From assembly GCA_963702215.1 (NCBI GenBank), contig OY969726.1:1681533-1745532 (forward strand): DNA of 64,000 nt, read 5' to 3'. Origin of the DNA: an uncultured Bacteroidota bacterium. Lineage in GTDB: Bacteria > Bacteroidota > Ignavibacteria > Palsa-1295. How positions within the stretch are numbered: position 1 is the first letter of the stretch; each line of letters opens with the position of its first letter. Made by a program: the position numbers and the translations under genes. The notes beneath the pieces were generated by a model. The model was not told the DNA's origin, made no database searches, and saw nothing but the letters and a program-made list of their open reading frames with translations. Shown in pieces: positions 4,297 through 40,864 of the stretch.

Positions 4297-4311
4297 TGCA
4301 AAGGATACGGG

Positions 4312-23564: not shown

Positions 23565-24169
23565 GAATAGTTACGATCGTTCCAACCGGCACTGCGAATC
23601 TCGCCTCGGTGATAACGGCACTGAGGCGCGCTGGTGCCCAGCCGATGCTTGCGGCTGGCCCGCTGGACGTGCTCCATTCCCAAGCTTTAATACTTCCGGG
23701 CGTTGGCAATTTCGGTGCGGCGATGGCGAAGCTCGAAGCGGATGGCACCGCCGAGACTCTTCGCGAGAAGCTTCTCGATGGCACGCCGGCGCTTGCCATT
23801 TGCCTCGGAATGCAAATTCTCTTTGAAGCAAGTGAAGAAAATCAGGATGTTCACGGACTTTCGATCTTGCCGGGCCGGTTCGGGCGCTTCCCAAATACTG
23901 TTCGCTCGCCGCATGTGGGATGGAATACCGTTGAGCCGATCGGTGCAGCGAAGTTCCTGCGTCCGGGCGATGCCTACTTTACCCACTCCTATCGATTGAC
24001 TGAATTGCCGCCAAACTCGATCGGAGCGATGACCGGCTATGGTGCGCCATTTGTTTCCGCCATCGAGTGCGGGAATATCCTCGCCTGCCAATTCCACCCG
24101 GAACTTTCCGGTGCGTGGGGAATCGAGCTGCTCCGACGATGGATCGATGCGGAGGGTATGCCATGCTAA
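23561..24169 (+). CDS. hisH: imidazole glycerol phosphate synthase, glutaminase subunit
   Basis: GTG start overlapping the hisB stop (GTGA). Class I GATase motifs (…LILPGVGNFG…, …ICLGMQIL…, …QFHPE…). Confidence 0.85.
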   Translation: MRIVTIVPTGTANLASVITALRRAGAQPMLAAGPLDVLHSQALILPGVGNFGAAMAKLEADGTAETLREKLLDGTPALAICLGMQILFEASEENQDVHGLSILPGRFGRFPNTVRSPHVGWNTVEPIGAAKFLRPGDAYFTHSYRLTELPPNSIGAMTGYGAPFVSAIECGNILACQFHPELSGAWGIELLRRWIDAEGMPC

Positions 24170-24915
24170 AGGCTCGAATCATGCCCTGCCTCAATTGTGA
24201 TGCGGGCCGCGTAGTGAAGGGCATTCGGTTTGCGAATCTTCACGATGCCGGCGATCCGGCGCAACTTGCAACGCGCTATGAGGCCGAAGGCGCGGACGAG
24301 ATCATCGTTCTCGATATCTCCGCAACCCTCGAAGCGAGGCAGCACCATGCCGGAACGATTCGCGCGATTCGGGATGCGATATCGATCCCAATCACCGCGG
24401 GCGGCGGCATTCGGACGCTCTCCGATTGTGAAGCATTGCTCGAAGCCGGAGCGGATAAGGTGAGCGTCAATAGCGCCGCGCATCGCACGCCGGATTTGAT
24501 CGATGCCATTGCAAACCGTTTCGGAACCCAATGCGCTATTCTCGCCATCGACGCGCGCCGGAATGAGAAAGAATGGCGAGTTCTCATCGATGCAGGACGC
24601 ACGCAAACCGAACGCTCGGTTACCAATTGGGCTTGCGAGGCAGCCGAGCGAGGCGCGGGAGAAATTCTGCTCACCAGTTGGGACCGCGACGGAACCCGGC
24701 TGGGTTACGATCTCGAACTCTTGCGAGCCGTCACTTCTGTGGTGGACATTCCTGTCATCGCTTCAGGCGGCGCCGCTAATGCGACGCATTTGGCGGAGGC
24801 ATTCCATGCAGGAGCATCGGGGCTGCTTGCGGCTTCTCTTTTTCACGATAACGATTATTCCATTTCCAAAATCAAGCGAAAACTTTATGATTTCGGAGTG
24901 CCAATCAGAATATGA
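24163..24915 (+). CDS. hisF: imidazole glycerol phosphate synthase, cyclase subunit
   Basis: Start MLKARIMPCLN at 24163, overlapping the hisH stop by 7 nt. Classic HisF N-terminus and (beta/alpha)8 motifs. Confidence 0.9.
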   Translation: MLKARIMPCLNCDAGRVVKGIRFANLHDAGDPAQLATRYEAEGADEIIVLDISATLEARQHHAGTIRAIRDAISIPITAGGGIRTLSDCEALLEAGADKVSVNSAAHRTPDLIDAIANRFGTQCAILAIDARRNEKEWRVLIDAGRTQTERSVTNWACEAAERGAGEILLTSWDRDGTRLGYDLELLRAVTSVVDIPVIASGGAANATHLAEAFHAGASGLLAASLFHDNDYSISKIKRKLYDFGVPIRI

Positions 24916-26184
24916 TTATTCCTTCTATCGATATTGAATCCGGCAATGCCGTGCAGCTTGTGGGCGGCGAGAAGAAAGCGATTGACGCCGGCGATCCACG
25001 AGTCATCGCGCGGAAGTTCGGGATTGTGGGCGAAGTGGCGCTTATCGATCTCGATGCCGCGCGCGGGATCGGCTCGAACGAGGCCATGATCGAAGAACTA
25101 TTGCCAATGGGGGCGTTTCGCTTTGGCGGTGGCATTCGTTCCTACGAGCAGGCCGTCCGTTGGCTCGATCGCGGCGCTACAAAGATCATTCTGGGAACCG
25201 CGGCGAGTGCGAAACTCTTGCAGCAATTACCACGGGAACGAACCATCGTGGCACTCAATGCGCGGCATGGTGAGGTTTATGATGAAGGCTGGCAGCGTGC
25301 AACCGGGGCGAGCGTGGCCAGCCGGATGCACGAGCTCGCGCCTTACACTGGCGGATTCCTCGTAACACTCATCGAACGCGAAGGCCGAATGGTGGGAACG
25401 GACATTTCCGTCATTCAGAAACTTCTCAGCGCCACCGGAAATGCTCGCCTCACGATCGCCGGGGGGATTTCCTCGGCGGACGAAATTTCCGAGCTGGACC
25501 GGATGGGCGTGGATGCGCAAGTGGGCATGGCGCTCTATGCTGGACGATTCGATTTCGCGAATGTGTACGCGGTCATGCTCCGCACCGATCGGCCGGATGG
25601 GTTGTGGCCAACGGTTGTCGCCGATGAAGACGGAATCGCACTCGGCCTTACCTATTCGAACGAAGAAAGCCTTCGATGCGCAATCAACGAACAGCGTGGG
25701 ATTTATTTTTCACGCACGCGCGGCCTGTGGCGAAAGGGCGAAACCTCCGGCAACACGCAGGAATTGCTTCGCATCGATCTCGATTGCGACCGCGATACAC
25801 TTCGGTTTACCGTGAAGCAAATCGGGGAAGGATTCTGCCACTCCGGGACGGACACGTGTTGGGATAACCTTCGTGGCATTCGCGCGCTCGAAGAACGGAT
25901 CGCGGAACGAATGAAATCGCCGGAAGAGGGCTCTTACACGAACAAGCTCCTTTCCTCCTTGGATTTTCTCTCCGCGAAATTAGTCGAAGAGGCGCAGGAA
26001 CTTTCAGAACGCCATCGGCCAAGAAGCCATCTACGAAGCGGCCGATTTGCTTTATTTCACGCTGGTTGCAATGCGCAAGCAAGGCGTTTCGATTGCCAAG
26101 GTTGCACGTGAATTAGACATGCGCGCCCTCAAACTCACGCGGCGACCGGGACTTCCCAAACATGGTAACGCTTTTGCAAAATAA
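24912..26184 (+). CDS. hisA/hisIE: fused HisA (ProFAR isomerase), HisI (PR-AMP cyclohydrolase) and HisE (PR-ATP pyrophosphatase), with an apparent +1 frameshift near 26005
   Basis: HisA N-terminus (MIIPSIDIESGNAVQLVGG…) runs to about residue 230. HisI follows (…GLWPTVVADEDG…CWDNL… with zinc-ligand cysteines). HisE follows (…EGSYTNKLL…LVEEAQEL). The canonical HisE continuation 'AIGQEAIYEAADLLYFTLVAMRKQGVSIAKVARELD…' is in the +1 frame and ends at TAA 26182-26184. The in-frame continuation to 26111 is arginine-rich nonsense. Confidence 0.7.
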
Positions 26185-26193
26185 AAAGGCAGG

Positions 26194-27447
26194 ATGATGC
26201 TCAAACAGATTACTATAGAAGAAGCACGTTCGCTCGATAGAACAGCTTCGCTCAATGATGTTTTACCGAACGCGGTTCAAATCGTGGAGGACGTTCGAAC
26301 CGGGAAGGATCTCGCGTTGCGCAGGCTTGCGGAACGATTTGGCGATCTTGCGCCGAATGCTCCGCTGATTATCGAGCGGGAGGAACTTGCGCGCGCGCTC
26401 GATGCGATACGTTCCAGCGAGCGAGCGATTTTGGAACGCACCGCGACACGAATCCGTCGTTTTGCCGAAGCACAGCGCGCGGCACTCAGCGATATAAAGG
26501 TTTCCGTAGAAGGCGGTTTCGCCGGACACACTGTCATGCCGCTCGAACGCGCCGCATGTTATGCGCCGGGTGGACGGTATCCGCTGCCCTCGAGCGTCCT
26601 AATGACGGCGGTCACTGCGCGCGTGGCCGGTGTAAATGCGGTTTGGGTTGCTACGCCGAAGCCATCGGACATCATGCTCGCCGCAGCCGCCGTTGCAGGG
26701 GCAGATGCGGTGCTCGCTGTTGGCGGCGCCCATGCCGTTGCTGCACTTGCATATGGCACCGAAAGTATTCCGCAATTCGATACAATCGTTGGGCCCGGGA
26801 ACCGGTGGGTTACCGCAGCGAAGCAATTGGTTGCGGGTATCGTAAAAATCGATATGCTCGCAGGCCCATCCGAACTTGCGGTTGTCGCCGATGACGCCGC
26901 AAATCCCGCCTGGGTAGCCGCCGATCTTCTCGCGCAAGCCGAGCACGACCCCGATGCACGCGTATTTTTGATTGCGTTTAGCGACCGAATTGTGCGATTG
27001 GTCGAGCGAGAGCTTGAATCACAATTGACGGATTTGCCGACGCAAGCCATAGCGCGCGAAGCCATCGGCAACAGTTTTTGTCTGATCGTGAATAGCGTGG
27101 AAGTGGCGGCGGAACTTTGTAATCAGATTGCGCCGGAACATCTTTCGCTGCAATTGGAACAGAAATCCATCGAGCGCTTGCACCCCATGCTTCGGCATTA
27201 CGGTGGATTATTTATCGGCGCTGGAAGCGCGGAAGTGCTTGGCGACTATGGGATCGGGCCGAATCACGTGCTGCCAACGCAAGGTTCCGCACGCGCGCGC
27301 GGCGGCCTTTCCGTATTCGATTTCCTGAAAGTTCAGACGTGGATGGATGTCTCGCGGGTTCCAGCTGGAGTATCCGAGGACATTGAGGCCCTCGCGCGCA
27401 TCGAGGGCTTGGAAGCGCATCGCCGCTCAATGGCGATGCGCGCTTAG
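26194..27447 (+). CDS. hisD: histidinol dehydrogenase
   Basis: 417 aa with HisD motifs (…AGPSE…, …QAEHD…, zinc-ligand His/Asp region). Confidence 0.9.
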   Translation: MMLKQITIEEARSLDRTASLNDVLPNAVQIVEDVRTGKDLALRRLAERFGDLAPNAPLIIEREELARALDAIRSSERAILERTATRIRRFAEAQRAALSDIKVSVEGGFAGHTVMPLERAACYAPGGRYPLPSSVLMTAVTARVAGVNAVWVATPKPSDIMLAAAAVAGADAVLAVGGAHAVAALAYGTESIPQFDTIVGPGNRWVTAAKQLVAGIVKIDMLAGPSELAVVADDAANPAWVAADLLAQAEHDPDARVFLIAFSDRIVRLVERELESQLTDLPTQAIAREAIGNSFCLIVNSVEVAAELCNQIAPEHLSLQLEQKSIERLHPMLRHYGGLFIGAGSAEVLGDYGIGPNHVLPTQGSARARGGLSVFDFLKVQTWMDVSRVPAGVSEDIEALARIEGLEAHRRSMAMRA

Positions 27448-28340
27448 TATTCGGGACCGAGCGTCGCTTTTGCGGCGACCTGCACCGCCGATTTCGCCTG
27501 CGCCGCTGCATCTTTCGCGGCAAGAGCCGCTTCGTGGACGCGGTGGGCGGCATTCTCTTTCGCGGCCAGCGCGGCCTGCTTGAAGTTGGGAACCGCGTGC
27601 TGGACGACTTGCACTTTCGCTAGCCCGAACAGCCTCAAAATCTGAATATACCACCATCCCATATCCACTTCGAACCAGCGTTTCGAAAATTTCGCACTCG
27701 ATGGGAACTTATGGTGGTTATTATGCAACTCTTCACCGGAAAGTAAAAATCCGAGTGGAATGATATTGCGGCTCGCATCCTTCACTTTATAATTGCGGTA
27801 GCCGAGTGTATGCCCAAGGCCATTTACAATGCCTGCAGCCCAAAAGGGAACCCACAATACCTGTCCACCCCAAACCAGCACGCCAGCGATCGGACCGAAG
27901 AGGAACAGATCGGCGACGAGCAGCGAAATGGGCCCAATGAATTTGTGGGGGATGAAAATCTTTCGCTCAATAACGTCATCCGGGCAGCCTTTCGAGAATC
28001 GCTCGATGGTTGCCGCATCGCTCGCCGCATCACGGTAATACTTGACACCAAAGAAAAGAATGCGCGCCCAGCCATGAATGACGGGCGAATGGGGATCCTC
28101 CTCGGTCTCGACAAACGCATGGTGCTTCCGGTGAACCGATACCCATTCCCGCGTGCTCATCCCGGTAAAAATCCAGAGCCACCAACGCATCGGCCAGCTT
28201 GCAATCGGGTGAAGCTTGAGGCCGTTATGAGTCATCGCTCGGTGCAAGTAGAGCGAGGTACACATGATGGTCAGGTGCCCGGTGAGAATTACAAAAAGAA
28301 CGGCTCCGTACCAGGTATGGAATAAAAACGATAGATTCAT
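27444..28340 (-). CDS. membrane fatty-acid (acyl-CoA / acyl-lipid delta-9-like) desaturase
   Basis: Histidine boxes HRKHH and HNNHH, a third HxxHH region, and four TM segments. Confidence 0.8.
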   Translation of the reverse strand: MNLSFLFHTWYGAVLFVILTGHLTIMCTSLYLHRAMTHNGLKLHPIASWPMRWWLWIFTGMSTREWVSVHRKHHAFVETEEDPHSPVIHGWARILFFGVKYYRDAASDAATIERFSKGCPDDVIERKIFIPHKFIGPISLLVADLFLFGPIAGVLVWGGQVLWVPFWAAGIVNGLGHTLGYRNYKVKDASRNIIPLGFLLSGEELHNNHHKFPSSAKFSKRWFEVDMGWWYIQILRLFGLAKVQVVQHAVPNFKQAALAAKENAAHRVHEAALAAKDAAAQAKSAVQVAAKATLGPEY

Positions 28341-28450
28341 GTATTAAAGATGGTCGGCGGGGCAAATAATGCGAGGCGACAGGTATCAAATCCTATTTTG
28401 ACCACGAAAGTTCACCGATGCTACTGAACTGTGATTAATGGACGCAAAAT

Positions 28451-29140
28451 ATGGTTCTTGGAATAACCATGAATTCGAACAATGCTATGAAATCGGGCTG
28501 GCGCCGCGAGTGGCTGCTTGCCATCATTCTCGTCGCGCCGTTCATTGCCCTCGCAATCGTCTGGCCCTCACTGCCAGCGCGGGTACCCACGCACTTCGGG
28601 CTACGGGGAAATGTGAATCATTATAGCGGCCCTTCCGGACTCCTGATCCTGCCGGTGATAAATGTGCTGGTCGCCGCTATTCTCTATTTTATTCCACGTC
28701 TCGATCCGAAGCAAGAGAATATCCTTCATTCCATGCCCGCGTATCGCTGGATTCGATTCTGGCTCGCCGCATTCTTCACCTATATTTTTGCCCTAACGCT
28801 CGACAAGACGTTCAATCCGGCGATCGAGATAGGGCTGTCCATTTCGCTGGGATTGTTCGCATTATTTTTTTCACTCGGTCTCCTAATGCCGAAGTTGAAG
28901 CAGAACTATATGATTGGCATTCGGCTCCCATGGACGCTCGAAAGCGAGGACAATTGGAACCGCACCCACGCTTTCGCCGGCAAATTATGGATGTGGGGTT
29001 CCCTGATTGGAATCGTTCTCGTACTAATTTTTCAGTCCGATGGGCTCTTCATCGCATTCGGAACTGTGATCGCGCTGATCGTTTGGACCATCGTCTATTC
29101 CTATCGGATTTTCAAACGCCAGAGGGAGCATTCCAATTAA
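28451..29140 (+). CDS. DUF1648 / SdpI-YhfL family membrane protein
   Basis: '…PARVPTHFGLRGNVNHYSG…' (DUF1648) followed by an SdpI-like 4-TM region. Confidence 0.6.
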   Translation: MVLGITMNSNNAMKSGWRREWLLAIILVAPFIALAIVWPSLPARVPTHFGLRGNVNHYSGPSGLLILPVINVLVAAILYFIPRLDPKQENILHSMPAYRWIRFWLAAFFTYIFALTLDKTFNPAIEIGLSISLGLFALFFSLGLLMPKLKQNYMIGIRLPWTLESEDNWNRTHAFAGKLWMWGSLIGIVLVLIFQSDGLFIAFGTVIALIVWTIVYSYRIFKRQREHSN

Positions 29141-29232
29141 CGATCCGATTCCTGCTTCCTGACGGCTGAGTTCGCCGCAAATCCCGGCATGGAAAATGAT
29201 GAGGCATTCGTCCTCATTAATTCTACTTTTCC

Positions 29233-30066
29233 ATGAAAGCAATCCTTAGTGCAGTTTTTTTCGCACTCGTGTCTGTTTTTGCGCTCAACCGTGCGTACGG
29301 CCAAACGAGCAATACCGAACCGATCATAGTCGGTGTCGAGGCCGGCACGAATTACACGCCTTGGCAGCACGCAGCCCCGAATTATTTCTCAACGGTTTAT
29401 CCGTACCCACCCGGCGCAGACACGGTGCAAATTCCCTTTCATTCCGGCGCGAAAGCGCTCTTCGGTTTTTACGCGGCGCTCTCCGGTAATTTCTTTCTCA
29501 ATTCGCACTGGTCCGTGCTCGCAAAATTCGGCTATTCGGAATGGCGCGGGGAGTGGAACTCGACGGAGCCGGTGGATTTCGATACGAACGGCGTGGCCGG
29601 GACAATTCCCGTTTCGAGCGATCTTGTCTTCATGCTTCGCACGGTAGCGCTCGAAGGGTACTTGGAATATCATTTCTGTGGAACGAAGGGATTTTATCTT
29701 GGCGCTGGCGTTGCGGTGCGGGCGCTGGCATCTAGCCATTACGATCTCGACCGCTCCATTACCGGCGGCCCGGCAAACCTGAGCTTTGTCGATTTTTCGA
29801 CCGGAACCGGGACCGGCAGTCGATCCTATTCCATCGGCGGGGATCAACCGATTACTACCTCAATTGCGGATGCGAAGCTGCTTGCCGGAATTCCCATCCC
29901 GCTTTCAGACCGCTGGAGTTTATGTCCCGAACTCGCATTCGATCTGCCGCTCGGAAGCATCTGGACCTCCGCGAAACAAGCCGAATATGACGCAAGCACC
30001 TACGGGAATTCGCCGGAACCGATTGCCATTACGGGTATCATTGCGCTGCGCTATCAGGCGCAGTAG
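29233..30066 (+). CDS. outer-membrane beta-barrel (porin-like) hypothetical protein
   Basis: Signal peptide, alternating amphipathic strands, and a C-terminal '…ALRYQAQ'. Confidence 0.5.
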   Translation: MKAILSAVFFALVSVFALNRAYGQTSNTEPIIVGVEAGTNYTPWQHAAPNYFSTVYPYPPGADTVQIPFHSGAKALFGFYAALSGNFFLNSHWSVLAKFGYSEWRGEWNSTEPVDFDTNGVAGTIPVSSDLVFMLRTVALEGYLEYHFCGTKGFYLGAGVAVRALASSHYDLDRSITGGPANLSFVDFSTGTGTGSRSYSIGGDQPITTSIADAKLLAGIPIPLSDRWSLCPELAFDLPLGSIWTSAKQAEYDASTYGNSPEPIAITGIIALRYQAQ

Positions 30067-30088
30067 CAAATTCAATGTTGTTTGGAGG

Positions 30089-30160
30089 GAGGAATCTTCG
30101 GTATTTTCGGCAAAACTCGAAGATTCCTCGACTCCGCTCATTCCGGCTTTCGCCGGAATG
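30089..30160. terminator. two stem-loops between convergent genes (GAGGAATCTTCG-N17-CGAAGATTCCTC; CATTCCGGC-TTTC-GCCGGAATG)
   Basis: Perfect 12-bp and 9-bp inverted repeats. Neither has a strong U-tract, so the terminator role is inferred from position only. Confidence 0.4.
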
Positions 30161-30267
30161 AACTCCGCTCGGAATGACAATAAGACTTTTCGGGGATCAC
30201 TGCTCTTCGTTCCGTGATGCCTCCTCGCAATGACGTAGAAAAGTCGGTAGCCGGTTAAATCCGCCTT

Positions 30268-31056
30268 CTACCACCCCCGGTGCCGAAGCCAGATCGCGTA
30301 TTGCGTGGGCGTCAGGATCACTTGTATGGTAAGGGTTAGTTCCGTCCGGCACGTTGCCAGATCGTTGAAGAAGGCGGTGCGGAGCGGCAGCGTCGCACTT
30401 TCGTAAAACGCTATAGCAGAATCGAGTTCGATGCGCGCACTATCGCGAGTAATCGTGCCCGAATCCATCGAGGCGACAATTGCGGCGCGCTGCACGCGGA
30501 ACGTATCGCGATAGGGTGCCAGCCGGACGGCGAACGAATCAATTGCGGGCGTTGCGCAATCTAAGAATGAGATCATGGCGGTATCGATCTCGCTCTTCTC
30601 GATCTCGGTCAATCTGAGCGAATCAGTCCAGTCCTCCTCGTGATCGCTGATATAGACGCCATGATTGTGCTTGGAACCCTTCACGAATTCGTGGATGTGG
30701 TTGTGATCGCCGTAACCGTGGCCATTCTTTACATACTGCACGATGAACTTGTAGTGGGGATCGTTATCGCCGTCATTCGCATCGTGGAGCGACTTGAGAT
30801 AATCCTGCTCATCCAAGAAGAAGGAGTAATCGACATCGTCCTCTGTGTCATTCAGGATGTAGAAGTCATCGGCATCGCCATTCGGCGGGAGCGTGAAGAA
30901 CTCGTCCAGCGTGATGGTGTTCGTGGTTGTAGCTGTTGCGGGTTGTGTTGGATATTTCGTAGCGCACGAAGAGAGTGTGATCGCGGCAAAGGCAACCGCG
31001 AAAAGCGCGACGGAAGAATAGCCCGCGCGCTTATGGATGAGTAACTGTGATCGCAT
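30268..31056 (-). CDS. lipoprotein with a His-rich motif
   Basis: The lipobox 'LSSC' follows a signal peptide. The protein contains 'NGHGYGDHNHIHEFVKGSKHNHG', a possible metal-binding segment. Confidence 0.5.
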   Translation of the reverse strand: MRSQLLIHKRAGYSSVALFAVAFAAITLSSCATKYPTQPATATTTNTITLDEFFTLPPNGDADDFYILNDTEDDVDYSFFLDEQDYLKSLHDANDGDNDPHYKFIVQYVKNGHGYGDHNHIHEFVKGSKHNHGVYISDHEEDWTDSLRLTEIEKSEIDTAMISFLDCATPAIDSFAVRLAPYRDTFRVQRAAIVASMDSGTITRDSARIELDSAIAFYESATLPLRTAFFNDLATCRTELTLTIQVILTPTQYAIWLRHRGW

Positions 31057-31166
31057 AAGAGTGAGTGTTCGTTAATATTCCGCCTGTTTTTTTAGATTCA
31101 TTCGGCGGCCGGCGGGGAGCAGTGCAAGTAGCGTACCGTTGGCCAGAAAGTCCGTATTTTGTACAG

Positions 31167-31514
31167 ATGAAACTACCGAATGCAGAGCAAGCCATAGTCA
31201 TGCTTGAGAAACTTGAAGGTTATTGCCTTAATCCGGGACACGAGAAAGGCAAGCACAAGGCCCGGGTCTTTTGGCGAGCACTCGGGATTGGCCGGGAGCA
31301 CTCATTGCTGTTGAGAACGGTTCTCCTCGAACGTGCCGTGACCGCAGATGCGATCAAGATCGAGTCGAACAGATTCGGAGATCATTATTTCGTTGATTTC
31401 ATCTTGGAACACGAGGGTAAAAAGGCGGAGATTCGTAGTAAATGGACTGTTCGAACAGGTGAGAATTTTCGTCGGCTTGGAAGCTGTTACGTTAAGAGAA
31501 GGATAAAGGAATAG
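31167..31514 (+). CDS. DUF6883-like protein (upstream partner of a two-gene module)
   Basis: '…KLEGYCLNPGHEKGKHKARVF…GDHYFVDFILEHEGKKAEIRSKWTVRTGENFRRL…'. The family assignment is from memory. The start was chosen at MKLPNAEQ; the ORF extends to 31065. Confidence 0.5.
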   Translation: MKLPNAEQAIVMLEKLEGYCLNPGHEKGKHKARVFWRALGIGREHSLLLRTVLLERAVTADAIKIESNRFGDHYFVDFILEHEGKKAEIRSKWTVRTGENFRRLGSCYVKRRIKE

Positions 31515-31516
31515 AT

Positions 31517-31741
31517 ATGGTGGAAAATCTAAAATTGCTGGATGTCGTCGCATTGTTGGAAGACGTTCCCGAACTCAAGCTCCACCGCGGAGAAGTTGGA
31601 ACCATTGTGGAAGAATTCGAGGACGGTTCGGTTGAAGTCGAGTTTGCAGACAAGCGAGGCGTGGCATACGCTTTCGCGGATTTACCAAAGAGCAAGCTCT
31701 TGGCGCTTCATACGGTAGATGTGGCGGAAGAGGTAGCGTGA
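31517..31741 (+). CDS. DUF4926 domain protein
   Basis: 74 aa with 'LLDVVALLEDVPELKLHRGEVGTIVEEFEDGSVEVEF', the characteristic DUF4926 architecture. It starts 2 nt after the upstream stop. Confidence 0.65.
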   Translation: MVENLKLLDVVALLEDVPELKLHRGEVGTIVEEFEDGSVEVEFADKRGVAYAFADLPKSKLLALHTVDVAEEVA

Positions 31742-31962
31742 ATACCTCAATCAATGAATTAGACGTGGTAGCACTCCTGGAAGATATTCCAGAGGACAAA
31801 CTTGTTCGCGGGGATGTTGGAACTATTGTGGACGATTCCGGAACGGGCCTCTATCTCGTCGAATTCGCCGACCGGTACGGACAAACCTACGCGATGCCTG
31901 CCTTGCGCGCGGAACAGTTCCTTGTGCTGGATCACATCGATAATGAGAAGGTGGAAGTGTAA
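31738..31962 (+). CDS. DUF4926 domain protein (tandem paralog)
   Basis: 74 aa with 'ELDVVALLEDIPEDKLVRGDVGTIVDD…YLVEF'. The GTG start has a GTGA overlap with the previous stop. Confidence 0.65.
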   Translation: MNTSINELDVVALLEDIPEDKLVRGDVGTIVDDSGTGLYLVEFADRYGQTYAMPALRAEQFLVLDHIDNEKVEV

Positions 31963-32451
31963 AATTTACTTCAACCTATGGAATGGATGAAAGTTTGTAA
32001 GGGTGACTAAGATTCAAGGTCTCAATCCAGATTCTAATATGGCTCTGTATTTGATAGTAACAGAAGGCGAAAACGTATATCACGAAGTGGTGCCGTTGAC
32101 TGCGGGGTGGATAGTGCAGCGCGCGTTTCCGTTTCGAAGACTTAGACGCCCTTATTTGTGGATGATGCTGAACGAGCCTCTTCAAGGTTCAGCATCAATA
32201 TTTAAGGCCGGTCGCTGGAAAGAATCTTTGTGCTGTCCCGTGAGATGAATCGCGGACTGCATCTGTTGAGATCGTTTCCCATCGAAGTGGAAGCGTGGGT
32301 GCAAACTAATCCCAATGCCTTATTAGACGATTTGCTCGAAACCAAACTTTGCTTGGTGTCGGGATGCTGACTAACAGGGCAGATGATGTTTCTTCAATGA
32401 GGAGTTGGCTAGAAAAGCACTCTTATTGAGTTAGCACAGGTTTTCCTCCAA

Positions 32452-34182
32452 TCAATTCTTCGAACTGATTTCCGTTCGAATAAGCTTTCCATTCGTCGGA
32501 ATCCGCCTATTCACCGTCCCATTCCGATGACCCTCCATCATCTCCCGCTGCTCCTGATGCAGCAAACTCGCCCGCACAAATTCGCGGAAGATGGGATGCG
32601 CCTTCGTGGCGCGGCTTTTTAGTTCCGGATGGAACTGCACGCCAATGAAGAAGGGATGCGCTTCGCGTTCCAATTCGATGATTTCCACCAAGTTCCCATC
32701 CGGCGAAACGCCGCTCATCACCATACCTTTGTCCGAGAGCAGGGCGCGGTAAGCATTGTTCACTTCATAGCGATGCCGATGCCGCTCGGTGATAAATTGA
32801 TCGCGGTAGGCGCGGTTGGCGATCGAGCCGCGCTTGAGGATGCACGGATAACTTCCCAGCCGCATCGTCGCGCCTTTGGTTTGCACTTGCTTTTGTTCCG
32901 GCATGAGGTCGATGACGGCGTTCGGCGTTTTCTTGAACTCGCTGGAATTCGCATCCTTCAGTCCGCACACATTCCGCGCATATTCTATGACAGCGCATTG
33001 CATTCCGAGGCAAATCCCGAAGAAGGGAATTTTCTTTTTGCGCACGTATTCGAGCGCCTTGATTTTTCCTTCCACGCCACGGGAACCAAATCCCGGAGCA
33101 ATGAGCACGCCATCGATTCCCTCGAAATAGGAGTCGATCTTCTGTTTGGATTCCAGTTCTTCGGAATTGATCCAGACGACCTCTACTTTCGCATCGTTCT
33201 CCGCTCCGGCATGGACAAACGCCTCACTGATGGATTTATACGCATCCTGAAGCTGAATATACTTCCCAATCATCCCGATGCGCACCGATTTTTTCGGATG
33301 CTTTACGCGCTCGACAAACTTTCGCCATTTGGCGAGATCGCGCTTCGCCGTCGTTGGCAAGCCAAGCTTCTCAAGCACGATCCCATCGACATTCTCATCG
33401 GCGAAGGTAAGCGGAACTTCGTAAATCGTTGGCGCATCGCGCGCTTCGATGACGGCGCGCGTTTCGACGTTGCAGAACAGCCCGATCTTCTCGCGAATCG
33501 CTTTCGAAAGCGGCTGCTCGCTACGGCAAACAAGCACGTCCGGCTGAATCCCGATTTCGAGGAGCGTCTTTACCGAATGCTGCGTCGGCTTTGTTTTCAG
33601 TTCCCCCGCGCTCGCGATGTAGGGAACATAGGAAAGATGAATCGTGATGCAATTCTTCTTCCCAACTTTCATCATGAGCTGGCGAATCGCTTCTAAGAAC
33701 GGCAGCGATTCAATATCGCCTACCGTCCCGCCGATTTCGCTGATGATGACATCGAAATCGCCGGACTTCGCAAGCTGCGTCATGCGGCGGCGGATTTCAT
33801 CCGTGATGTGGGGAACTACTTGCACGGTCGCGCCCAAGTAATCGCCGCGCCGCTCCCGCTGGATGACTTCGTTATAGACCTGCCCGGTCGTCGTGTTGTT
33901 GGCGCGGGTCATGTTCACATCGAGGAACCGCTCGTAGTGGCCAAGATCGAGGTCGGTCTCCGCGCCATCCTCCGTCACATACACTTCGCCATGCTGGTAC
34001 GGCGACATGGTTCCCGGATCGACATTGATATAGGGATCGAATTTCTGCACCGTCACGCGCAGACCGCGTGATTTCAGCAACAGACCGAGAGAAGAGGAGA
34101 CGATTCCCTTTCCGAGTGAGGAGACCACCCCGCCCGTAATAAATATAAACTTTGTCTGCTTCTTCGCCTTTGCTTTCGCCAC
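32452..34182 (-). CDS. pyrG: CTP synthase
   Basis: 576 aa with an N-terminal synthetase domain ([13 protein letters not shown]) and a C-terminal GATase domain (…GICLGMQ…). Confidence 0.95.
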
Positions 34183-34292
34183 TCTAAATTACAAAATTAC
34201 GACCGCACACACGATTGCGCGTCCACGATTGACCGGGACGTGAACGCGGAAAATGGGAAGTAGGTGCGCGAGGGGCAAATTATGTCGTAAAT

Positions 34293-34635
34293 TTGTGTCG
34301 CCTGATGGTGATTTCAAAAGACGCGACGATTCCCGTTGAGAAAATTCGAGACTATCTCCTGAAATGGATCGAGAAGGATGATAAGTCCGGATATTTGAAA
34401 CACGCGGGATATTCTAGTGAGAATTACCAGCAATTAATCGATGATATTCGGGAGCAACTTCTGCCGGCCGAGGCCGTGTTGCAGGAACAAAGGCAGGATG
34501 GAGATCTGTATAGAATTCGAGGCCGCCTTCGAGGACCAAAACGGCCGGGAACTTCCAGTAAGAACCGTTTGGCTTGCGAGCGAAGGAGCTAAACCACCTT
34601 TTATCACGCTTGTACCGGATAAGGAGAGAGGATAA
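34293..34635 (+). pseudogene. DUF6883-like gene disrupted by a single-base frameshift near 34520
   Basis: The N-terminal frame (34293..) reads '…IPVEKIRDYLLKWIEKDDKSGYLKHAGY…QDGDLYRI'. The conserved C-terminal block '…EFEAAFEDQNGRELPVRTVWLASEGAKPPFITLVP' is in the +1 frame (ORF 34441..34635). Both halves align to the intact copy at 31167..31514. Confidence 0.5.
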
Positions 34636-34880
34636 TGACCTACGAACTCTACTCACAAATTGCACTTACAGGGGAGATCCCGGAGCACGGCCTCAGGCGT
34701 GGCGATATTGCTCGTGTGGTCGAAAAAATCCCGCCGGAAAGTTCCGATCCCACATCCTATGTGCTTGAAGTGTCTAACGCACTCGGTGAGTCCATGAACG
34801 TCATCATCGTGAAAGCCAACCAGATTGAGCCGCTGCAAAACGACGAGTATTTCTCCGTGCGGCACATGGAGGCCGCGTAG
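34635..34880 (+). CDS. DUF4926 domain protein
   Basis: 81 aa with 'IALTGEIPEHGLRRGDIARVVE…YVLEV'. TAATG overlap with the upstream partner, and an AAGGAGAGAGG Shine-Dalgarno. Confidence 0.6.
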   Translation: MTYELYSQIALTGEIPEHGLRRGDIARVVEKIPPESSDPTSYVLEVSNALGESMNVIIVKANQIEPLQNDEYFSVRHMEAA

Positions 34881-34971
34881 ACCCGTTGCGCGGTACATTC
34901 GGGAAGGAATTCGGCTGGATGCGTGGAGGTAACATTACTTAGGGCGCCGAAGAATAGGAAGTATTTAACTT

Positions 34972-35382
34972 ATGAAATTCTTAGTGATGGTTGCAACCCC
35001 GTTGGCGTATTTGGTGATGTTATCATCGCCCGTCATGTCCCAAACTATTCGGGATGCCCATTACAATGTCGAATTTCAAGTGAGCATAGACGGGACGGTG
35101 AAGGACGCCCATTACAACAGCTACTGGCATATCAAGTCGGACGGAACTATTCGGGATGCCCATTATAATACGATTGGTTACCTCAAGAATGGCGTGGTTG
35201 AAGATTCCCATTATAACACGCTCGGCCACGTAAAAACGAATGGCGACGTTCTGGATGCCCATTACAATACGATTGGTCATCTTAAAGACGATGGGACGGT
35301 TCTCGATGCGCACTACAACACCATCGCGCACGCGCCCGGGATTCGAAAGGAATGGACCGCCGCCCTTCTTTTCTTTTTCTGA
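34972..35382 (+). CDS. secreted protein with six tandem ~17-aa 'DAHYN' repeats
   Basis: Signal peptide (MKFLVMVATPLAYLVMLSSPVMSQ) followed by the repeat DAHYN(x)2(IG/..)(x)3-4(D/N)G(T/V)(V/I)x, six times. It lies in a locally lower-GC region. Confidence 0.55.
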   Translation: MKFLVMVATPLAYLVMLSSPVMSQTIRDAHYNVEFQVSIDGTVKDAHYNSYWHIKSDGTIRDAHYNTIGYLKNGVVEDSHYNTLGHVKTNGDVLDAHYNTIGHLKDDGTVLDAHYNTIAHAPGIRKEWTAALLFFF

Positions 35383-35530
35383 ATCTAAAACTCGTTTTTT
35401 CCTTCCCCCGGAGAATGTGTCGCCGTCGCGCGAGCGCACATAGTTCCCGGTATTGAGGGCGAAATCTTTATTCCGCCCGGCAGGTTCGCAAGCTGGCGGG
35501 TGTGGTGCCCGCCGAGGGTTTTTACAACAC

Positions 35531-35568
35531 AAGCTCCGTTTGCTATGCAGGCGGAGCTTTTTATTTTT
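35531..35568 (+). terminator. rho-independent terminator
   Basis: AAGCTCCG-N12-CGGAGCTT followed by TTTATTTTT. A second GGCGGG-N7-CCCGCC hairpin lies just upstream. Confidence 0.55.
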
Positions 35569-35571
35569 ACA

Positions 35572-36123
35572 ATGAATACAACAGAAAATATCGTTGAGAC
35601 TTACTATCGGGTCTGCCGAAAGTGCTTTACAATGCAAGACATTAAGGTTCTCGGCGGTAATAATCGGCAATTCGATCTTCTGGCGTTTAGCGTCATTGAC
35701 CAAACAGCATTTCATGTCGAATCGTCCATCTCGATAACCGACGCTCGACCACTTCGAATGAAAGATGAATTAGGAGTAATTGAATCCCTGAAAAAGAAAT
35801 TTTTTGGAGACCCACCAATTCGCCAAGGAGCTCGGACGGATCACGCTAGGGGAATTAATTACGGAGATAAAATTGACTACATGTACAAATCCTTAGGTCT
35901 TAACCCGCAGAAGATCGAGAGAGTCTGTTGCAGGTGGGCTTTTTACGATGAAAATGAGAAGTTAAAGTCCTTTCTCAACACTAATAAAATAATTCAATTG
36001 AGTTTTAGGGACACAGTTCTTCCCGAATTGGAGCAGACCCTTACAACTGCTCACTACGAGAATGATGGCATGAGAACAATAAGTTTGATTCGCGAGTATA
36101 GGCGCCAAACAACCACGGCATGA
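35572..36123 (+). CDS. hypothetical protein (low-GC island)
   Basis: Start MNTTENIV, immediately after the terminator. The upstream part of ORF 35500.. spans that terminator and is rejected. No confident family. A speculative PD-(D/E)xK nuclease resemblance rests on 'FDLLAF…HVESS' and is weak. Confidence 0.45.
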   Translation: MNTTENIVETYYRVCRKCFTMQDIKVLGGNNRQFDLLAFSVIDQTAFHVESSISITDARPLRMKDELGVIESLKKKFFGDPPIRQGARTDHARGINYGDKIDYMYKSLGLNPQKIERVCCRWAFYDENEKLKSFLNTNKIIQLSFRDTVLPELEQTLTTAHYENDGMRTISLIREYRRQTTTA

Positions 36124-36658
36124 TTTTTTTGAGCGGGTTTTTATTTCGTATTTTTGTGATATGAAAAAGACCAAGGGAGTCGAACCAAAATTGAGGAACC
36201 CAAATTCGCTTACGATTTGGCGAATTGGCCGAACTATAGTCCTGAAGGAACTGCACAAAAAAGTGCCGACCTGCAGGCCGATTCGTCGGTTTATTGATTG
36301 CCCGGGGATCGGAAAATTGAAGGTTGTGTCCTCGTCCTATCGTAAGCCCGATAAAAGCACACCATGCTGGCATTGGGGCTGGGGCCTCGTTCGAAAAAAA
36401 GAGAAAATCGCCTTCACACACGTTGTGTGCGTTGCACTCGACAAAAAAAAACAAAGTGCACAATTATTATATTATTAACCGAGCCGATGTTAATGCCTTT
36501 CCCCAATGGCCGCGCCATTACAGCGAAAAGCATTCCCTGATTATCGCCGACGGAACTAAACCTTGCGCAACCGAATACGATGAGCTTGCACGGACCAAAG
36601 TGAAGAATGCAAAGCCTGGAACTCTTTTTCAGACATTCAAAAATTTGGAGGCACAATC

Positions 36659-38170
36659 ATGAAAAATGCTATAAAACTGATGGTGGGAACACTTGCCTTG
36701 TTTCTAGTCGGGATCCTTCTGGGGGGGTGCTACGTCATGCATTTAGGAGAGCATTTCGAAGAACTTAAGAATGCGGAAAGTATTGCGCAATCCAATGACG
36801 TTTCTCATGGCATCCCAGATTTCATTCTAGCCTCAATTGATGACGTAAAAAAAGTAATAAATGAGGACTCTACGGATGGAGAGGCGTGGTACCTATATGC
36901 AAAGATTTCATACCTTAAGTATCTCCAGTGGAATAGTTCCTCTTATAATAATGCCGATCCGTCGGATTTGGTCATCGCGATGCAGAAAGGCGTTGAATAT
37001 TCCCCCGCGCCTTTTTTCCCGTGGAGTCGTCGCGGAGAACTTATTGTCGAAGCGGATAGCCTTTGTAACTATTTAAGCAATAATGATGCCATAAACCCTA
37101 GTATTGGAAGGCTTCTAAGTGATTTGGTACCTAATAATGCTGGACTTTATTTAGGTTTAGGAAGTTGGTGTATGCGTGCCGGTGACACCTCAAACGCCGC
37201 AATGAATTGGGTTCATGCAGCTAATCTTCGCCGCAGTCTGACGAGTGTAACGCCAACGTGCGCCGCAGTGATTGCCGATTATTACATAAATTTGGGAGTT
37301 CGGAACATGCAAGCCGGCGATAGCATGATGTCCTCTCTTGATTTTGATAGTTCGTCAGTGTATTTTGATTTAGTTACAGACAGGAATCAACGTTCGTTGG
37401 TCTACGCGTCCCTTGGGAACGCTAGAGCTGGATTCCATGATTTTGACAGCGCCATTGAAGACTACAGCGAGGCTGTTGGCTTAGATTCCTCAGAAATTAG
37501 TGACCTGCAATATTTAGCTCTCGAATTAGGGCCGGAGGAAAAGAAAGGAATCCAGCGAAGTATGAGCCCCGCATCTATGCAACTTGCCGGAGTACTGCTT
37601 CGCAAATTGCTCTTGCAACAGGATGTGGAAAGTGCAAATTATGACGAAACCGAAAAAGCCCTCATGGCCATCTTCCAATTGCTGAACGATCAAGCGGGAA
37701 TAAAGTCGCTCGTGGTCTACAAGGCAAAGAAGGAGCAAGAGAGGTTGCAAGCTCAGGAGGTGGCGCGTCAAAAAGAGGAGGCCCGGCTTCAAGCAGAGGT
37801 GGCGGAACGTCAAAAAGAGGAGGTGGAGCAGCAAAGGGAGGAGGCCGCGCGTCAAGCTGATGATCGCCGAGCTGATGCGGCTGCACTAAGGATCGAAGGG
37901 CGCCTTAGCGCAGGCCTTATTCAAGAAATTGCGAATAACTTAATGGAGCCAGAGGATGTGATGAAAACCACGTTCAGATTGAATAGCTCATTCGGAACTA
38001 ACTTCAACCCTCAGCTTCTGAACGCGTATGCATACGCCGGAAATAACGCAGCAATAAAAAATTATTTTGCGCAACAATTTAAATCCATCGTCCCTCTCAG
38101 CGATATGCAGATAGGGATTTTAGCCCGATGCCTTAATGTGAGTACCGATGAACTGGGAGCTTTTCGGTAG
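36659..38170 (+). CDS. hypothetical lipoprotein/membrane-anchored protein with a charged coiled-coil (QK/E-rich) segment
   Basis: N-terminal hydrophobic anchor '…LFLVGILLGGCYV'. Central helical repeats, then 'ERLQAQEVARQKEEARLQAEVAERQKEEVEQQREEAARQADDRR'. Confidence 0.5.
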   Translation: MKNAIKLMVGTLALFLVGILLGGCYVMHLGEHFEELKNAESIAQSNDVSHGIPDFILASIDDVKKVINEDSTDGEAWYLYAKISYLKYLQWNSSSYNNADPSDLVIAMQKGVEYSPAPFFPWSRRGELIVEADSLCNYLSNNDAINPSIGRLLSDLVPNNAGLYLGLGSWCMRAGDTSNAAMNWVHAANLRRSLTSVTPTCAAVIADYYINLGVRNMQAGDSMMSSLDFDSSSVYFDLVTDRNQRSLVYASLGNARAGFHDFDSAIEDYSEAVGLDSSEISDLQYLALELGPEEKKGIQRSMSPASMQLAGVLLRKLLLQQDVESANYDETEKALMAIFQLLNDQAGIKSLVVYKAKKEQERLQAQEVARQKEEARLQAEVAERQKEEVEQQREEAARQADDRRADAAALRIEGRLSAGLIQEIANNLMEPEDVMKTTFRLNSSFGTNFNPQLLNAYAYAGNNAAIKNYFAQQFKSIVPLSDMQIGILARCLNVSTDELGAFR

Positions 38171-38751
38171 TGAGCAAACTCTCCCGCCTCCATCGTGGTG
38201 ATAAAGTCCTCTGGCAGCCTTCAATTGAGGAGGCGGATGACCACGCACTGCTGAAGCGCGCGCGGTGGTCGGATATGCCGGTGAGCCAGCACGCCGTCGT
38301 CGAAAGCATCAATCGCAAGCAGATTGAAATAACGCTACTCGATTTGCCAGACACAGCAAGCGGCGGTGAAATTCATCTGACTGTACATCGCGCATCGATC
38401 ACGCCGCTGCCGGGGCCTCCTCTGCCCCACGGACGGAAGTCGAAAGTAGATGCAAACGTACGAGAAATAAGGAGAGCGCGCAGTCCGAAAGATGTAATGC
38501 GTGTTGTTACGCGCGTGAACCATCAAGTCGGAATCATCATCAATATTTTGCTCTTTGCCTGGACGGTCTGTTCGTTCCTGAGCATTAAAATCCCACTTTT
38601 CATTTACGGTGCTCTGCCCTCTGGCATTGTACCTCTGCTTGGCCTGCGTGCAAGTGTGCGCGCCGCCGCCAAGAAAAAGCTAGGGAAGGAATACGTGGAG
38701 GAATTCCTGCGGGTTTACAATGGCCGCCGCAAGTGGAAGAGGATTATTTAG
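38170..38751 (+). CDS. hypothetical membrane protein
   Basis: GTG start with a TAGTG overlap on the previous gene. Two C-terminal TM helices. Confidence 0.4.
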   Translation: MSKLSRLHRGDKVLWQPSIEEADDHALLKRARWSDMPVSQHAVVESINRKQIEITLLDLPDTASGGEIHLTVHRASITPLPGPPLPHGRKSKVDANVREIRRARSPKDVMRVVTRVNHQVGIIINILLFAWTVCSFLSIKIPLFIYGALPSGIVPLLGLRASVRAAAKKKLGKEYVEEFLRVYNGRRKWKRII

Positions 38752-39204
38752 CAACCTCGAGGAGCACGAGCGCGGGCTTGTGCGCCTCTCCAATCAGTCG
38801 TTATAGCAACCGGACGTGCGCGGCGCGTCCCTAGGAGCGCCTTCGCGATACCCAAAAACTTCTCACCGCCATGTCCATCATCCCCGCCCATGGCTGGTTT
38901 TTCTATGCTATTCTCTTAGCAAGATAGCTTTCTAAGTTTTTCAAAACCACCCCACAAAAAAGTGAGCAAAAAAGTTACCACTTTTTAAAGACTGGCGAAA
39001 ACAGTCTGCAAATGGCACAGTTCATGAAGCACAAACGCGCGCGCACTATATAAAGTAGTTTTCCGGGATTTTTTCAAGCTGTAGAAAATTTGGAGATTCC
39101 TTCGCGCCGCTCGCAGCGAAGGCGAGTGGGAAAGGATTAGGAAAGAATCTCGGAATATTCCGGATTTTCAGGAACCTGTCAGGAGGGTAGGGAAAGGACG
39201 AAGA

Positions 39205-39396
39205 TTATTGCGCGCGCTTGCCACGCGCACCGGCGAACCACACAATCACTGCCACCGCGACCATTATCCCGCCGATGATGGCCCATTTGCTATCGTTCGT
39301 CATCACGCTGCCGTGAATTACGCCGATGCCCTGTCCGAACCAGACGAGGCCGATGAGGCCGATGATTATTGTAACTACGCGCCAAAGAGTTCGCAT
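39205..39396 (-). CDS. small two-TM hypothetical protein
   Basis: 63 aa with two hydrophobic helices and a basic C-terminus (ARGKRAQ). Confidence 0.35.
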   Translation of the reverse strand: MRTLWRVVTIIIGLIGLVWFGQGIGVIHGSVMTNDSKWAIIGGIMVAVAVIVWFAGARGKRAQ

Positions 39397-39442
39397 TTCA
39401 GACTAACCTTTAATTCGTGGAGTATCATTCCGGCATCGCAGC

Positions 39443-40768: not shown

Positions 40769-40864
40769 TTAACTCTGCGGGTAACGCTTTTTTGGATGAG
40801 AGGGGTTCAGGCAGCGCGGTTATCTTTTCGGGATGTTCTGGAATCTTCGGGCGTTTGCCTTTAG

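Follow-up and report, generated by a model that had tools for sequence, protein, structure and literature searches.

Three small co-directional genes occupy positions 31167 to 31962 of the window, by which we mean the whole 64,000-nucleotide stretch of DNA analysed (Table 1). The tight coupling that had been predicted for them was confirmed: the first DUF4926 gene (d1) starts 2 nt after the stop codon of the upstream DUF6883 gene (toxin 1), and the start codon of the second DUF4926 gene (d2) overlaps the TGA stop of d1 as GTGA. An AAGGA motif is found 6 nt upstream of d1, within the toxin 1 gene. In the deposited annotation toxin 1 begins at Met12 (P0001, 104 aa), but comparison with homologues and the invariant L3-P4-N5 support the start at 31167 as the probable one.

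Table 1. Positions of the genes and sites described in the text
Feature	Position	Strand	Details	Basis
Toxin 1, DUF6883 protein, predicted BECR-fold endoribonuclease	31167..31514	+	115 aa; ATG at 31167, TAG stop at 31512-31514	PF21814, AF2, Foldseek
d1, first DUF4926 gene, predicted cognate inhibitor	31517..31741	+	74 aa; ATG at 31517	PF16277, AF2, partner identity
d2, second DUF4926 gene, divergent extra copy	31738..31962	+	74 aa; GTG at 31738	Pfam E=1.1e-22
pyrG	32452..34182	-	between the two modules	
Toxin 2, divergent DUF6883 gene	34305..34635	+		two ORF pieces, DUF6883 profile
A4 homopolymer run, frameshift site in toxin 2	34538..34541	+		L083 alignment, tblastn
d3, DUF4926 partner of toxin 2	34635..34880	+	81 aa	Pfam E=1.2e-8

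The region has a modestly reduced GC content, in line with the original prediction, with values of 46-49% at 31000-32500 versus about 52-60% in the upstream flank. Scans of the locus for promoters and terminators gave chance-level results only, and hence the operon structure is read from gene spacing only. No Rfam matches and no nearby tRNA were found.

The pyrG gene separates this locus from a second, related module. In close relatives the module was found after gyrB, near rplM-rpsI, near an MBOAT gene or after guaA, and such differences in position between close relatives are typical of mobile modules. Some relatives lie in toxin-antitoxin islands next to BrnT/BrnA and PemK, and others at varied housekeeping sites. 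Since adjacency to pyrG is not kept in relatives, a functional link of the module to this gene was rejected, and the adjacency is incidental.

Family membership and co-inheritance

A Pfam search placed the three proteins in the families that had been proposed for them, with E-values far beyond chance. Toxin 1 matched DUF6883 (PF21814; gathering score 27 bits) over profile positions 1-109 of 110 (E=2.8e-26, 92.4 bits), and d1 and d2 matched DUF4926 (PF16277; gathering score 29.1 bits) with 75.2 bits (E=2.6e-21) and 79.6 bits, respectively. PADLOC-DB v2 returned no match at E<=1 for any of the five proteins, and PHROGs and NCBIfam gave no usable matches. DUF6883 is represented by 6065 cluster representatives at E<=1e-3, with a patchy spread across many phyla.

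The association of the two families proved near-absolute in both directions. In 79 of 80 genomic loci, drawn from more than ten phyla, a DUF4926 gene begins -10 to 150 nt downstream of DUF6883; conversely, the gene immediately preceding DUF4926 encodes DUF6883 in 55 of 67 metagenomic loci. The identity matrices of toxins and partners are correlated (Mantel r=0.74; permutation maximum 0.19), and natural single-chain DUF6883-DUF4926 fusions occur (L010, P0310 and P0353). Toxin 1 is basic (pI 9.8) and d1 acidic (pI 4.4). The fusions, the co-variation and the opposite charge of toxin 1 and d1 bear indirectly on a predicted direct contact between toxin and partner; for the toxin domain the family-wide median pI is just 7.1, so that opposite charge is not universal.

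Predicted fold and active site of toxin 1

Searches of the PDB by sequence, with single sequences and with the family profile, gave nothing meaningful; the toxin is tied to known proteins by structure comparison only. The AF2 model of toxin 1 (pLDDT 95.7) consists of three helices followed by a 4-stranded sheet; the sheet is antiparallel and the helices at the N-terminus pack against it, as in a BECR-type fold. The best Foldseek matches of this model were 6cp8 and 6vek (probability 1.00), with the toxin of Escherichia coli 3006 (EC3006) ranked first. The CdiA-CT toxins of EC3006 (PDB 6CP8, 6VEK) and of Klebsiella pneumoniae 342 (Kp342; 6CP9) are BECR tRNases that share this layout of N-terminal helices and then a 4-stranded sheet, although toxin 1 has no detectable sequence similarity to them and the structural alignments show 14-20% identity.

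In the Kp342 and EC3006 toxins a Lys-Tyr-Thr triad acts together with a His and an Arg; the residues given are K157/Y160/H170/R252/T255 for Kp342 and K204/Y208/T330 for EC3006 (a review and a CASP13 paper: PMC9086364; PMC6851490). Toxin 1 has candidate counterparts of these residues, with Lys and Tyr in an N-terminal helix (K-x3-Y, as in EC3006), His next, and then Arg-x2-Thr/Ser in the last strand. The residues concerned, K15, Y19, H25, R103 and S/T106, show little or no variation, and are located in elements that would correspond to those of the CdiA-CT active site. Among toxin 1 homologues Y19, H25, G28, K31, D77, W93 and R103 are invariant. Across both DUF6883 subfamilies only Lys15, Tyr19, Gly71, Tyr74, Trp93, Arg103 and Ser/Thr106 are conserved, a set that, judged by conservation pattern and position, includes the putative counterparts of the reported Lys-Tyr-Thr triad and of the Arg.

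The DUF4926 proteins

The AF2 model of d1 is an SH3-like barrel (pLDDT 89.6). The d2 protein has a pI of 4.05, and DUF4926 is acidic throughout (pI 4.05-5.33 across 78 partners). No DNA-binding domain was found in DUF4926, which gave no RHH, HTH or AbrB match and folds as a single SH3-like barrel, and no known immunity protein resembles it.

The possibility that d1 and d2 arose by a recent tandem duplication was rejected, since d1 shares 82-89% identity with its counterparts next to the nearest toxin 1 homologues and only 46-50% with d2. The protein that d2 matches best (62%) accompanies a different toxin variant (in L017). The d2 gene is missing from L001, L084 and L087, which are the nearest relatives, and it was found in two independent short contigs (L081 and L082). 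On these comparisons d1 is the cognate partner of toxin 1, and d2 an additional, diverged copy of orphan-immunity type.

The second module

A homologous module had also been predicted across pyrG. This module is real (34305-34880), but its toxin gene belongs to a different DUF6883 subfamily, encodes neither the His nor the Arg, and is frameshifted in this assembly. The two ORF pieces of toxin 2 match positions 6-82 and 75-108 of the DUF6883 profile, and the repaired protein of 109 aa matches PF21814 with 62.7 bits (E=4.7e-17); its identity to toxin 1 is about 19%. A single additional A in the A4 run splits the gene. An independent contig (L083) has A3 at this place and an intact toxin 2, and the 361-nt alignment between both is identical save that one base. 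When a homologue from L003 was used in tblastn, the reading frame changed at the same run, and both comparisons place the frameshift there rather than near position 34513. The conserved His is absent from the whole toxin 2 subfamily, and at the position equivalent to R103 an Arg is present in 21 of the 25 aligned sequences and a Pro in toxin 2 only. The second module is a His-less DUF6883 variant and is probably inactive in this genome.

The start codon of d3 overlaps the stop of toxin 2 as TAATG, and a AAGGAGAGAGG motif lies upstream of d3, within the toxin 2 gene. Compared with the DUF4926 proteins that accompany subfamily-2 toxins in L003, L173 and L174, the d3 protein (34.6 bits with PF16277; pI 4.6) shows 43-48% identity.

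A predicted toxin-inhibitor module

The Pfam matches, the conservation of the pair, the RNase-toxin fold of the upstream gene product and the gene order support the toxin-antitoxin-like character attributed to the locus by the original prediction. We consider it likely that these genes make up a two-component module of the type II toxin-antitoxin kind, in which the toxin, a predicted RNase, comes first and its inhibitor second. Toxin 1 would be a small, basic, metal-independent endoribonuclease with a BECR fold of the colicin-D-like branch, and its predicted active site would comprise K15, Y19 and S106 (the Lys-Tyr-Thr/Ser triad) together with H25 and R103. Its closest relatives of known structure cleave uncharged tRNA-Ile in the acceptor stem, and hence tRNA cleavage that halts translation would be its most likely action. 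Going by the same relatives, ribosome-dependent cleavage of mRNA is not expected. The d1 protein is predicted to bind the toxin 1:1, covering its RNA-binding or active-site face, and d2 would belong to a different specificity class. Given the tight spacing and the Shine-Dalgarno-like motifs inside the upstream genes, the inhibitor would be produced whenever the toxin is. The biological role may be addiction or abortive defence.

Toxin 1 and d1 form a small, adjacent, co-directional and coupled gene pair that is conserved as a pair, as in type II toxin-antitoxin systems. In the systems of this type with BECR-fold toxins, such as BrnT/BrnA, HigB/HigA and the RelE type, the toxin gene likewise precedes a tightly coupled antitoxin gene. 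Unlike most type II antitoxins, DUF4926 has no RHH, HTH or other DNA-binding domain with which to autoregulate its operon, and no operator-like inverted repeat was found upstream of either module. Furthermore, the structural match of toxin 1 to BrnT and RelE is much weaker than that to the CdiA-CT tRNases. The CdiA-CT toxins are neutralised by a small protein encoded immediately downstream, the position that the predicted inhibitor DUF4926 occupies with respect to toxin 1. Each of them, however, is the tip of a large secreted CdiA protein, whereas toxin 1 is standalone. The PBECR domains of phage polyvalent/MuF proteins (Iyer et al. 2017, PMC5512222) resemble it in their active-site pattern, with a His among the N-terminal helices and a Ser/Thr in the C-terminal part, and DUF6883 likewise occurs fused, as a C-terminal domain, to Phage_Mu_F (P0338). 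Toxin 1 differs from them in that it is chromosomal, standalone and paired with a predicted inhibitor.

The statement that neither family has a demonstrated function has to be qualified. A 2026 preprint names DUF6883 "BECR-Tox3", a colicin-like BECR RNase with a conserved downstream DUF4926, taken as putative immunity, and with Phage_Mu_F fusions (bioRxiv 10.64898/2026.08.28.747851). A functional prediction therefore exists for both families, although the case made there is purely computational. Three of its points (BECR fold, downstream DUF4926 and Phage_Mu_F fusion) were reproduced independently in the present analysis. The passages of that preprint consulted make no mention of the tandem extra DUF4926 genes, of a subfamily without the His, of single-chain fusions between DUF6883 and DUF4926, or of DUF4926 being acidic and SH3-like in fold.

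If the prediction is true, DUF6883 represents a widespread type of toxin-antitoxin system, with a tRNase of a kind so far known from contact-dependent inhibition, and its antitoxin is a minimal acidic SH3-like barrel lacking a DNA-binding domain. The three DUF genes could be relabelled in annotation as a putative BECR RNase toxin and inhibitors. Within a small space the locus also provides a cognate pair, a second inhibitor whose natural divergence suits it to specificity tests, and a His-less paralogue with an Arg-to-Pro change.

Alternative interpretations

The locus could instead be an orphan polymorphic-toxin/immunity cassette for cell-cell or phage-host conflict, whose toxin is normally delivered via a secretion system or a phage particle. 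DUF4926 would then be a kin-protecting immunity protein, and its extra copies orphan immunities to foreign variants. The nearest structural relatives of toxin 1 are indeed contact-dependent inhibition toxins, DUF4926, like immunity proteins, has no DNA-binding domain, and in several lineages divergent extra DUF4926 genes gather at the 3' end of the module. Polymorphic toxins (CDI, Rhs and MuF) are C-terminal domains of delivery proteins, and this arrangement was seen in the Phage_Mu_F fusion and in a 301-aa plasmid protein (an ORF in L090) that ends in DUF6883 and is followed by DUF4926. A 925-aa ORF ending in DUF6883 (L051) has no other domain, and its length most likely reflects over-extension in a GC-rich contig; it was therefore left out of the fusion count. 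Toxin 1 itself, however, starts with its own Met in a conserved MKLPN sequence, and carries neither a delivery domain nor a hydrophobic leader; standalone proteins of ~110 aa are also found in 78 of the 80 genomic loci and make up most of the best 150 family representatives. There are no secretion or phage genes near toxin 1, tblastn against 50,697 phage records gave no match, and relatives are situated among classical toxin-antitoxin modules. We regard a delivered toxin at this locus as unlikely.

A narrower proposal concerns the extra inhibitors. Here d2, and d3 beside its Arg-less toxin gene, would be orphan inhibitors directed against incoming DUF6883 RNases from phage MuF fusions and plasmids, as an anti-effector or anti-addiction defence. 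Divergent DUF4926 arrays would then grow at the 3' end of modules in the manner of the orphan immunity genes of CDI and Rhs loci. We think such a role rather improbable.

Turning from the toxin-inhibitor module to a role outside addiction or conflict, the upstream protein could process or bind RNA without being toxic, with DUF4926 as a small regulatory partner. Some BECR domains are predicted to be inactive RNA binders, e.g., the C-terminal domain of phage Mu MuF (PMC5512222), relatives of the module lie directly behind gyrB or guaA with gaps of 0-4 nt, and the conserved His is absent from subfamily 2. This reading is at odds with the position of the module, which varies as in mobile modules, and with its patchy spread across phyla. 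In addition, the canonical subfamily strictly keeps the Lys, Tyr, His, Arg and Ser/Thr that are putatively catalytic, pairing with an acidic partner is obligatory, and copies fused to effector proteins of phages and plasmids occur. A non-toxic function is thus very unlikely.

Finally, the likeness to HicAB that had been proposed holds for the order of the genes, toxin first and antitoxin second, but literal membership of that family is refuted: there is no HicA or HicB Pfam match, the toxin has a BECR and not a HicA fold, its partner forms an SH3-like barrel and has no DNA-binding domain, and gene order is all that both have in common.

Organization of the module

The original prediction placed three translationally coupled ORFs next to pyrG, separated by a 2-nt gap and a GTGA overlap, and these were confirmed. 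The upstream protein (toxin 1) matched Pfam DUF6883 over its full length (E=2.8e-26), and d1 and d2 matched DUF4926 (E=2.6e-21 and 1.1e-22, respectively), as proposed. The lower GC content was also observed, although the drop was modest (46-49% at 31000-32500 versus ∼52-60% in the upstream flank). A profile scan of all six frames of the 64-kb window detected two DUF6883 and three DUF4926 copies, all inside 3.7 kb around pyrG, and no further remnants of either family. In the deposited annotation toxin 1 starts at Met12 (P0001, 104 aa). The homologues are ∼110-115 aa long and carry an invariant L3-P4-N5. Since the Met12 start would remove these residues, and sits just three residues ahead of K15, it was probably mis-called, and the homologues support 31167 as the true start.

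Features of the region around pyrG
Feature	Coordinates	Strand	Description
SdpI-domain gene	28451-29140		Membrane protein with DUF1648 and SdpI/YfhL domain
Toxin 1	ATG 31167, stop TAG 31512-31514	+	115 aa, DUF6883
d1	ATG 31517 to 31741	+	74 aa, DUF4926; starts 2 nt past the toxin 1 stop
d2	GTG 31738 to 31962	+	74 aa, DUF4926; GTG overlaps the d1 TGA stop
Small ORF	32003-32248		81 aa; called as a gene in L082, a short contig carrying d2; no family match
Inverted repeat	32163-32197		Perfect 11-bp repeat, 13-nt loop, within the 490-nt gap between convergent d2 and pyrG; not followed by a T-run; may be a terminator common to both genes
pyrG	32452-34182	-	Normal CTP synthase gene
Toxin 2	34305-34635		DUF6883, frame interrupted
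d3	34635-34880		DUF4926
Beta-flower gene	34972-35382		Just downstream of the second module; 136 aa, repeated DAHYN units; Pfam Bflower_2 (5-fold beta-flower protein), E=1e-26
Low-GC segment	35500-37500		Lowest GC (42-46%) of the profiled region 24000-42000
ORF	35500-36123		No Pfam match
ORF	36659-38170		No Pfam match

Toxin 1 has the fold of BECR RNases

Sequence searches with toxin 1 against solved structures gave no match. The AlphaFold2 model, built with 43 homologues (pLDDT 95.7, pTM 0.87), is very confident and has helices at residues 13-20, 29-39 and 43-59 ahead of four long strands. The toxin domain of CdiA-CT EC3006 ranked first in Foldseek (probability 1.00), and the relatives retrieved belong to the BECR (barnase/EndoU/colicin/RelE) RNase superfamily. 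The Kp342 and EC3006 toxins cut the acceptor stem of uncharged tRNA-Ile(GAU) by means of a Lys-Tyr-Thr triad plus His and Arg (K157/Y160/H170/R252/T255 in Kp342; K204/Y208/T330 in EC3006), and their immunity proteins, when bound, cover the active site (PMC9086364; PMC6851490). In DUF6883, Y19, H25, G28, K31, F35, G71, D77, W93 and R103 are invariant, K15 is almost so, and 42 of 43 sequences have Ser or Thr at position 106. Judged by conservation pattern and position, like kinds of residue appear to lie in like structural elements of DUF6883 and the CdiA-CT tRNases, and their equivalence is putative. [quoted passage not shown]

DUF4926 is an acidic partner

In the model of d1 (pLDDT 89.6), five strands form a barrel and the C-terminal tail is disordered. 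DUF4926 is an SH3-like barrel that lacks a DNA-binding domain. The DUF4926 proteins analysed are all strongly acidic (pI 4.05-5.33 in 78 partners; d1 4.4, d2 4.05, d3 4.6), and toxin 1 is basic (pI 9.8, net charge ∼+8). Acidity of this kind is common among nuclease inhibitors. Shine-Dalgarno-like motifs precede the starts of d1 (AAGGA, 6 nt ahead), d2 (GAGG, 4 nt ahead) and d3 (AAGGAGAGAGG), and none was found in the sequence upstream of toxin 1 or toxin 2. Such an arrangement would favour an excess of the inhibitor.

DUF6883 and DUF4926 are inherited as a unit

A DUF6883 pattern scan with one genome per species gave at least 589 confirmed loci. The best-scoring 80, a sample skewed towards relatives of the window proteins, span more than 10 phyla, including Cyanobacteria, Planctomycetota, Acidobacteriota, Chloroflexota, Poribacteria, Armatimonadota, Verrucomicrobiota, Actinomycetota, Bipolaricaulota, Myxococcota and Ignavibacteriota. 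The expected co-occurrence held in both directions: a DUF4926 domain in the same orientation starts -10 to 150 nt past the toxin stop in 79 of these 80 loci, and DUF6883 lies directly upstream of DUF4926 in 55 of the 67 metagenomic loci with enough upstream sequence. The pairing is more than chance. Pairwise identities of toxins and partners are correlated (r=0.74, 78 pairs; maximum of 1000 permutations, 0.19), hence the two genes have been inherited and have diverged as one unit. The two domains are fused in a single chain in locus L010 and in proteins P0310 and P0353.

The family comprises 6065 representatives of 50%-identity clusters (E≤1e-3), and the best 150 of these are mostly standalone proteins of ∼110 aa. 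Larger architectures are also found: Phage_Mu_F plus DUF6883 (P0338), a 301-aa Rahnella plasmid protein with a terminal DUF6883 followed by DUF4926, and a 561-aa Mycobacterium plasmid protein with an internal DUF6883. At locus L127 (1226-1686) a ParE_toxin-family ORF (E=5.8e-12) is followed, 20 nt after its end, by a DUF4926 gene lacking a DUF6883 partner. Other BECR-fold toxins may also have DUF4926 as a partner, or this copy may merely lie within a toxin-antitoxin cluster.

The two downstream copies are not equivalent

The sequence comparisons indicate that d1, and not d2, tracks toxin 1. The closest homologues of toxin 1 are 64-75% identical to it, and the partners of these homologues share 72-89% identity with d1. 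Among the matches listed, d2 is closest to the partner at locus L017 (62%), whose toxin is only ∼50% identical to toxin 1. We considered that d2 might be a recent duplicate of d1, but rejected this because the two are only 46-50% identical and the closest relatives (L001, L084/L085, L087) carry a single DUF4926; d2 is thus an added divergent copy. It also occurs on two short, independent contigs from the same organism. Tandem pairs are rare among the best-scoring loci (0/80 genomic, 3/80 metagenomic), both samples leaning towards relatives of the window proteins. The tandem arrangement has recurred independently: two DUF4926 genes follow one DUF6883 in L086 (3001-3883), where d2 and the second copy share 40% identity, and in L174 (5001-5810; subfamily 2, described below), where the two copies share 50% identity.

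A second module beyond pyrG

A homologous module had been predicted on the other side of pyrG, and a DUF6883 gene was found there (repaired protein, E=4.7e-17), belonging to a separate subfamily (subfamily 2; ∼19% identity to toxin 1). Its frame is split: tblastn with the intact L003 homologue shifts frame after "GP", and the product in the source annotation is truncated to 95 aa (P0187). At 34538-34541 the window has A4, and the independent contig L083, otherwise identical over 361 nt, has A3 and an intact 109-aa ORF. A homopolymer error of the long-read assembly is the likeliest cause, a real polymorphism being less likely, and errors of this kind may explain further apparent frameshifts in the genome.

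Subfamily 2 lacks His at the H25 position, and "DDKSG" replaces "GKHKA", but it retains K, Y, W and R-x2-T; only K15, Y19, G71, Y74, W93, R103 and S/T106 are common to both subfamilies. The conserved Arg is present in 21 of 25 members, and toxin 2 alone has Pro, so that toxin 2 may be inactive even if in frame. DUF4926 also lies downstream of subfamily-2 genes in L003, L173 and L174. In L003 (Pirellulaceae, 4001-5259) a canonical module is directly followed by a subfamily-2 module, the same pair as around pyrG. At L171/L172 (4219-5333) a subfamily-2 gene adjoins a BrnT/BrnA pair, and in L172 a PemK toxin gene is also nearby; this locus is a toxin-antitoxin island of a Kapabacteria assembly.

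Proposed activity and alternative readings

On evidence that is computational throughout, we consider it quite probable that this is a toxin-first module, in which a BECR-fold RNase would be neutralised by direct binding of the acidic SH3-like DUF4926 barrel. The most likely target of such an RNase would be tRNA; a cut specifically in the acceptor stem, by analogy with Kp342 and EC3006, is less likely than not. Candidate roles are plasmid- or chromosome-type addiction, or abortive phage defence. Of the HicAB-like arrangement originally suggested, the toxin-first order stands, but not membership, since the toxin is BECR-fold and the partner an SH3-like barrel.

An orphan polymorphic-toxin and immunity cassette, directed against other cells or delivered by phage, would also suit the nearest structures, the fusions to MuF and plasmid proteins, and a partner that resembles an immunity protein. 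We regard this as rather improbable, since the toxin is standalone, neither a delivery domain nor secretion genes accompany it, and relatives have toxin-antitoxin modules as neighbours. A non-toxic role in RNA processing is very unlikely.

The core toxin-immunity reading is already known as a prediction: the available part of a preprint of 29 August 2026 (bioRxiv 10.64898/2026.08.28.747851) renames DUF6883 "BECR-Tox3", within a colicin-like branch, reads the DUF4926 gene conserved downstream of it as a putative immunity gene, and notes MuF fusions. Relative to that part, the SH3-like fold, uniform acidity and absence of a DNA-binding domain in DUF4926, the single-chain fusions, the His-less subfamily and the recurring extra DUF4926 copies appear to be new. 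In the literature searched, mostly not in depth, DUF4926 is mentioned by three papers and DUF6883 by one, and no experiments on DUF6883 or DUF4926 came up.

Genomic context

Among the matches listed, the closest relatives are Ignavibacteriota and Kapabacteria assemblies. In close relatives the module lies after gyrB (L001, L086) or guaA (L174), starting 0-4 nt past these genes, near rplM-rpsI (L084, L085), or near an MBOAT gene (L087). Hence, its adjacency to pyrG is incidental, and it behaves as a small mobile unit. The short spacing in L174, L086 and L001 suggests co-transcription with essential genes. DUF6883 is present in nine plasmid records, and tblastn against 50,697 phage records found none. 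Upstream of the module, the window encodes an SdpI-domain protein; in Bacillus, SdpI serves in signalling and in immunity to the SdpC toxin. Beyond the second module, the segment of lowest GC may be an acquired island.
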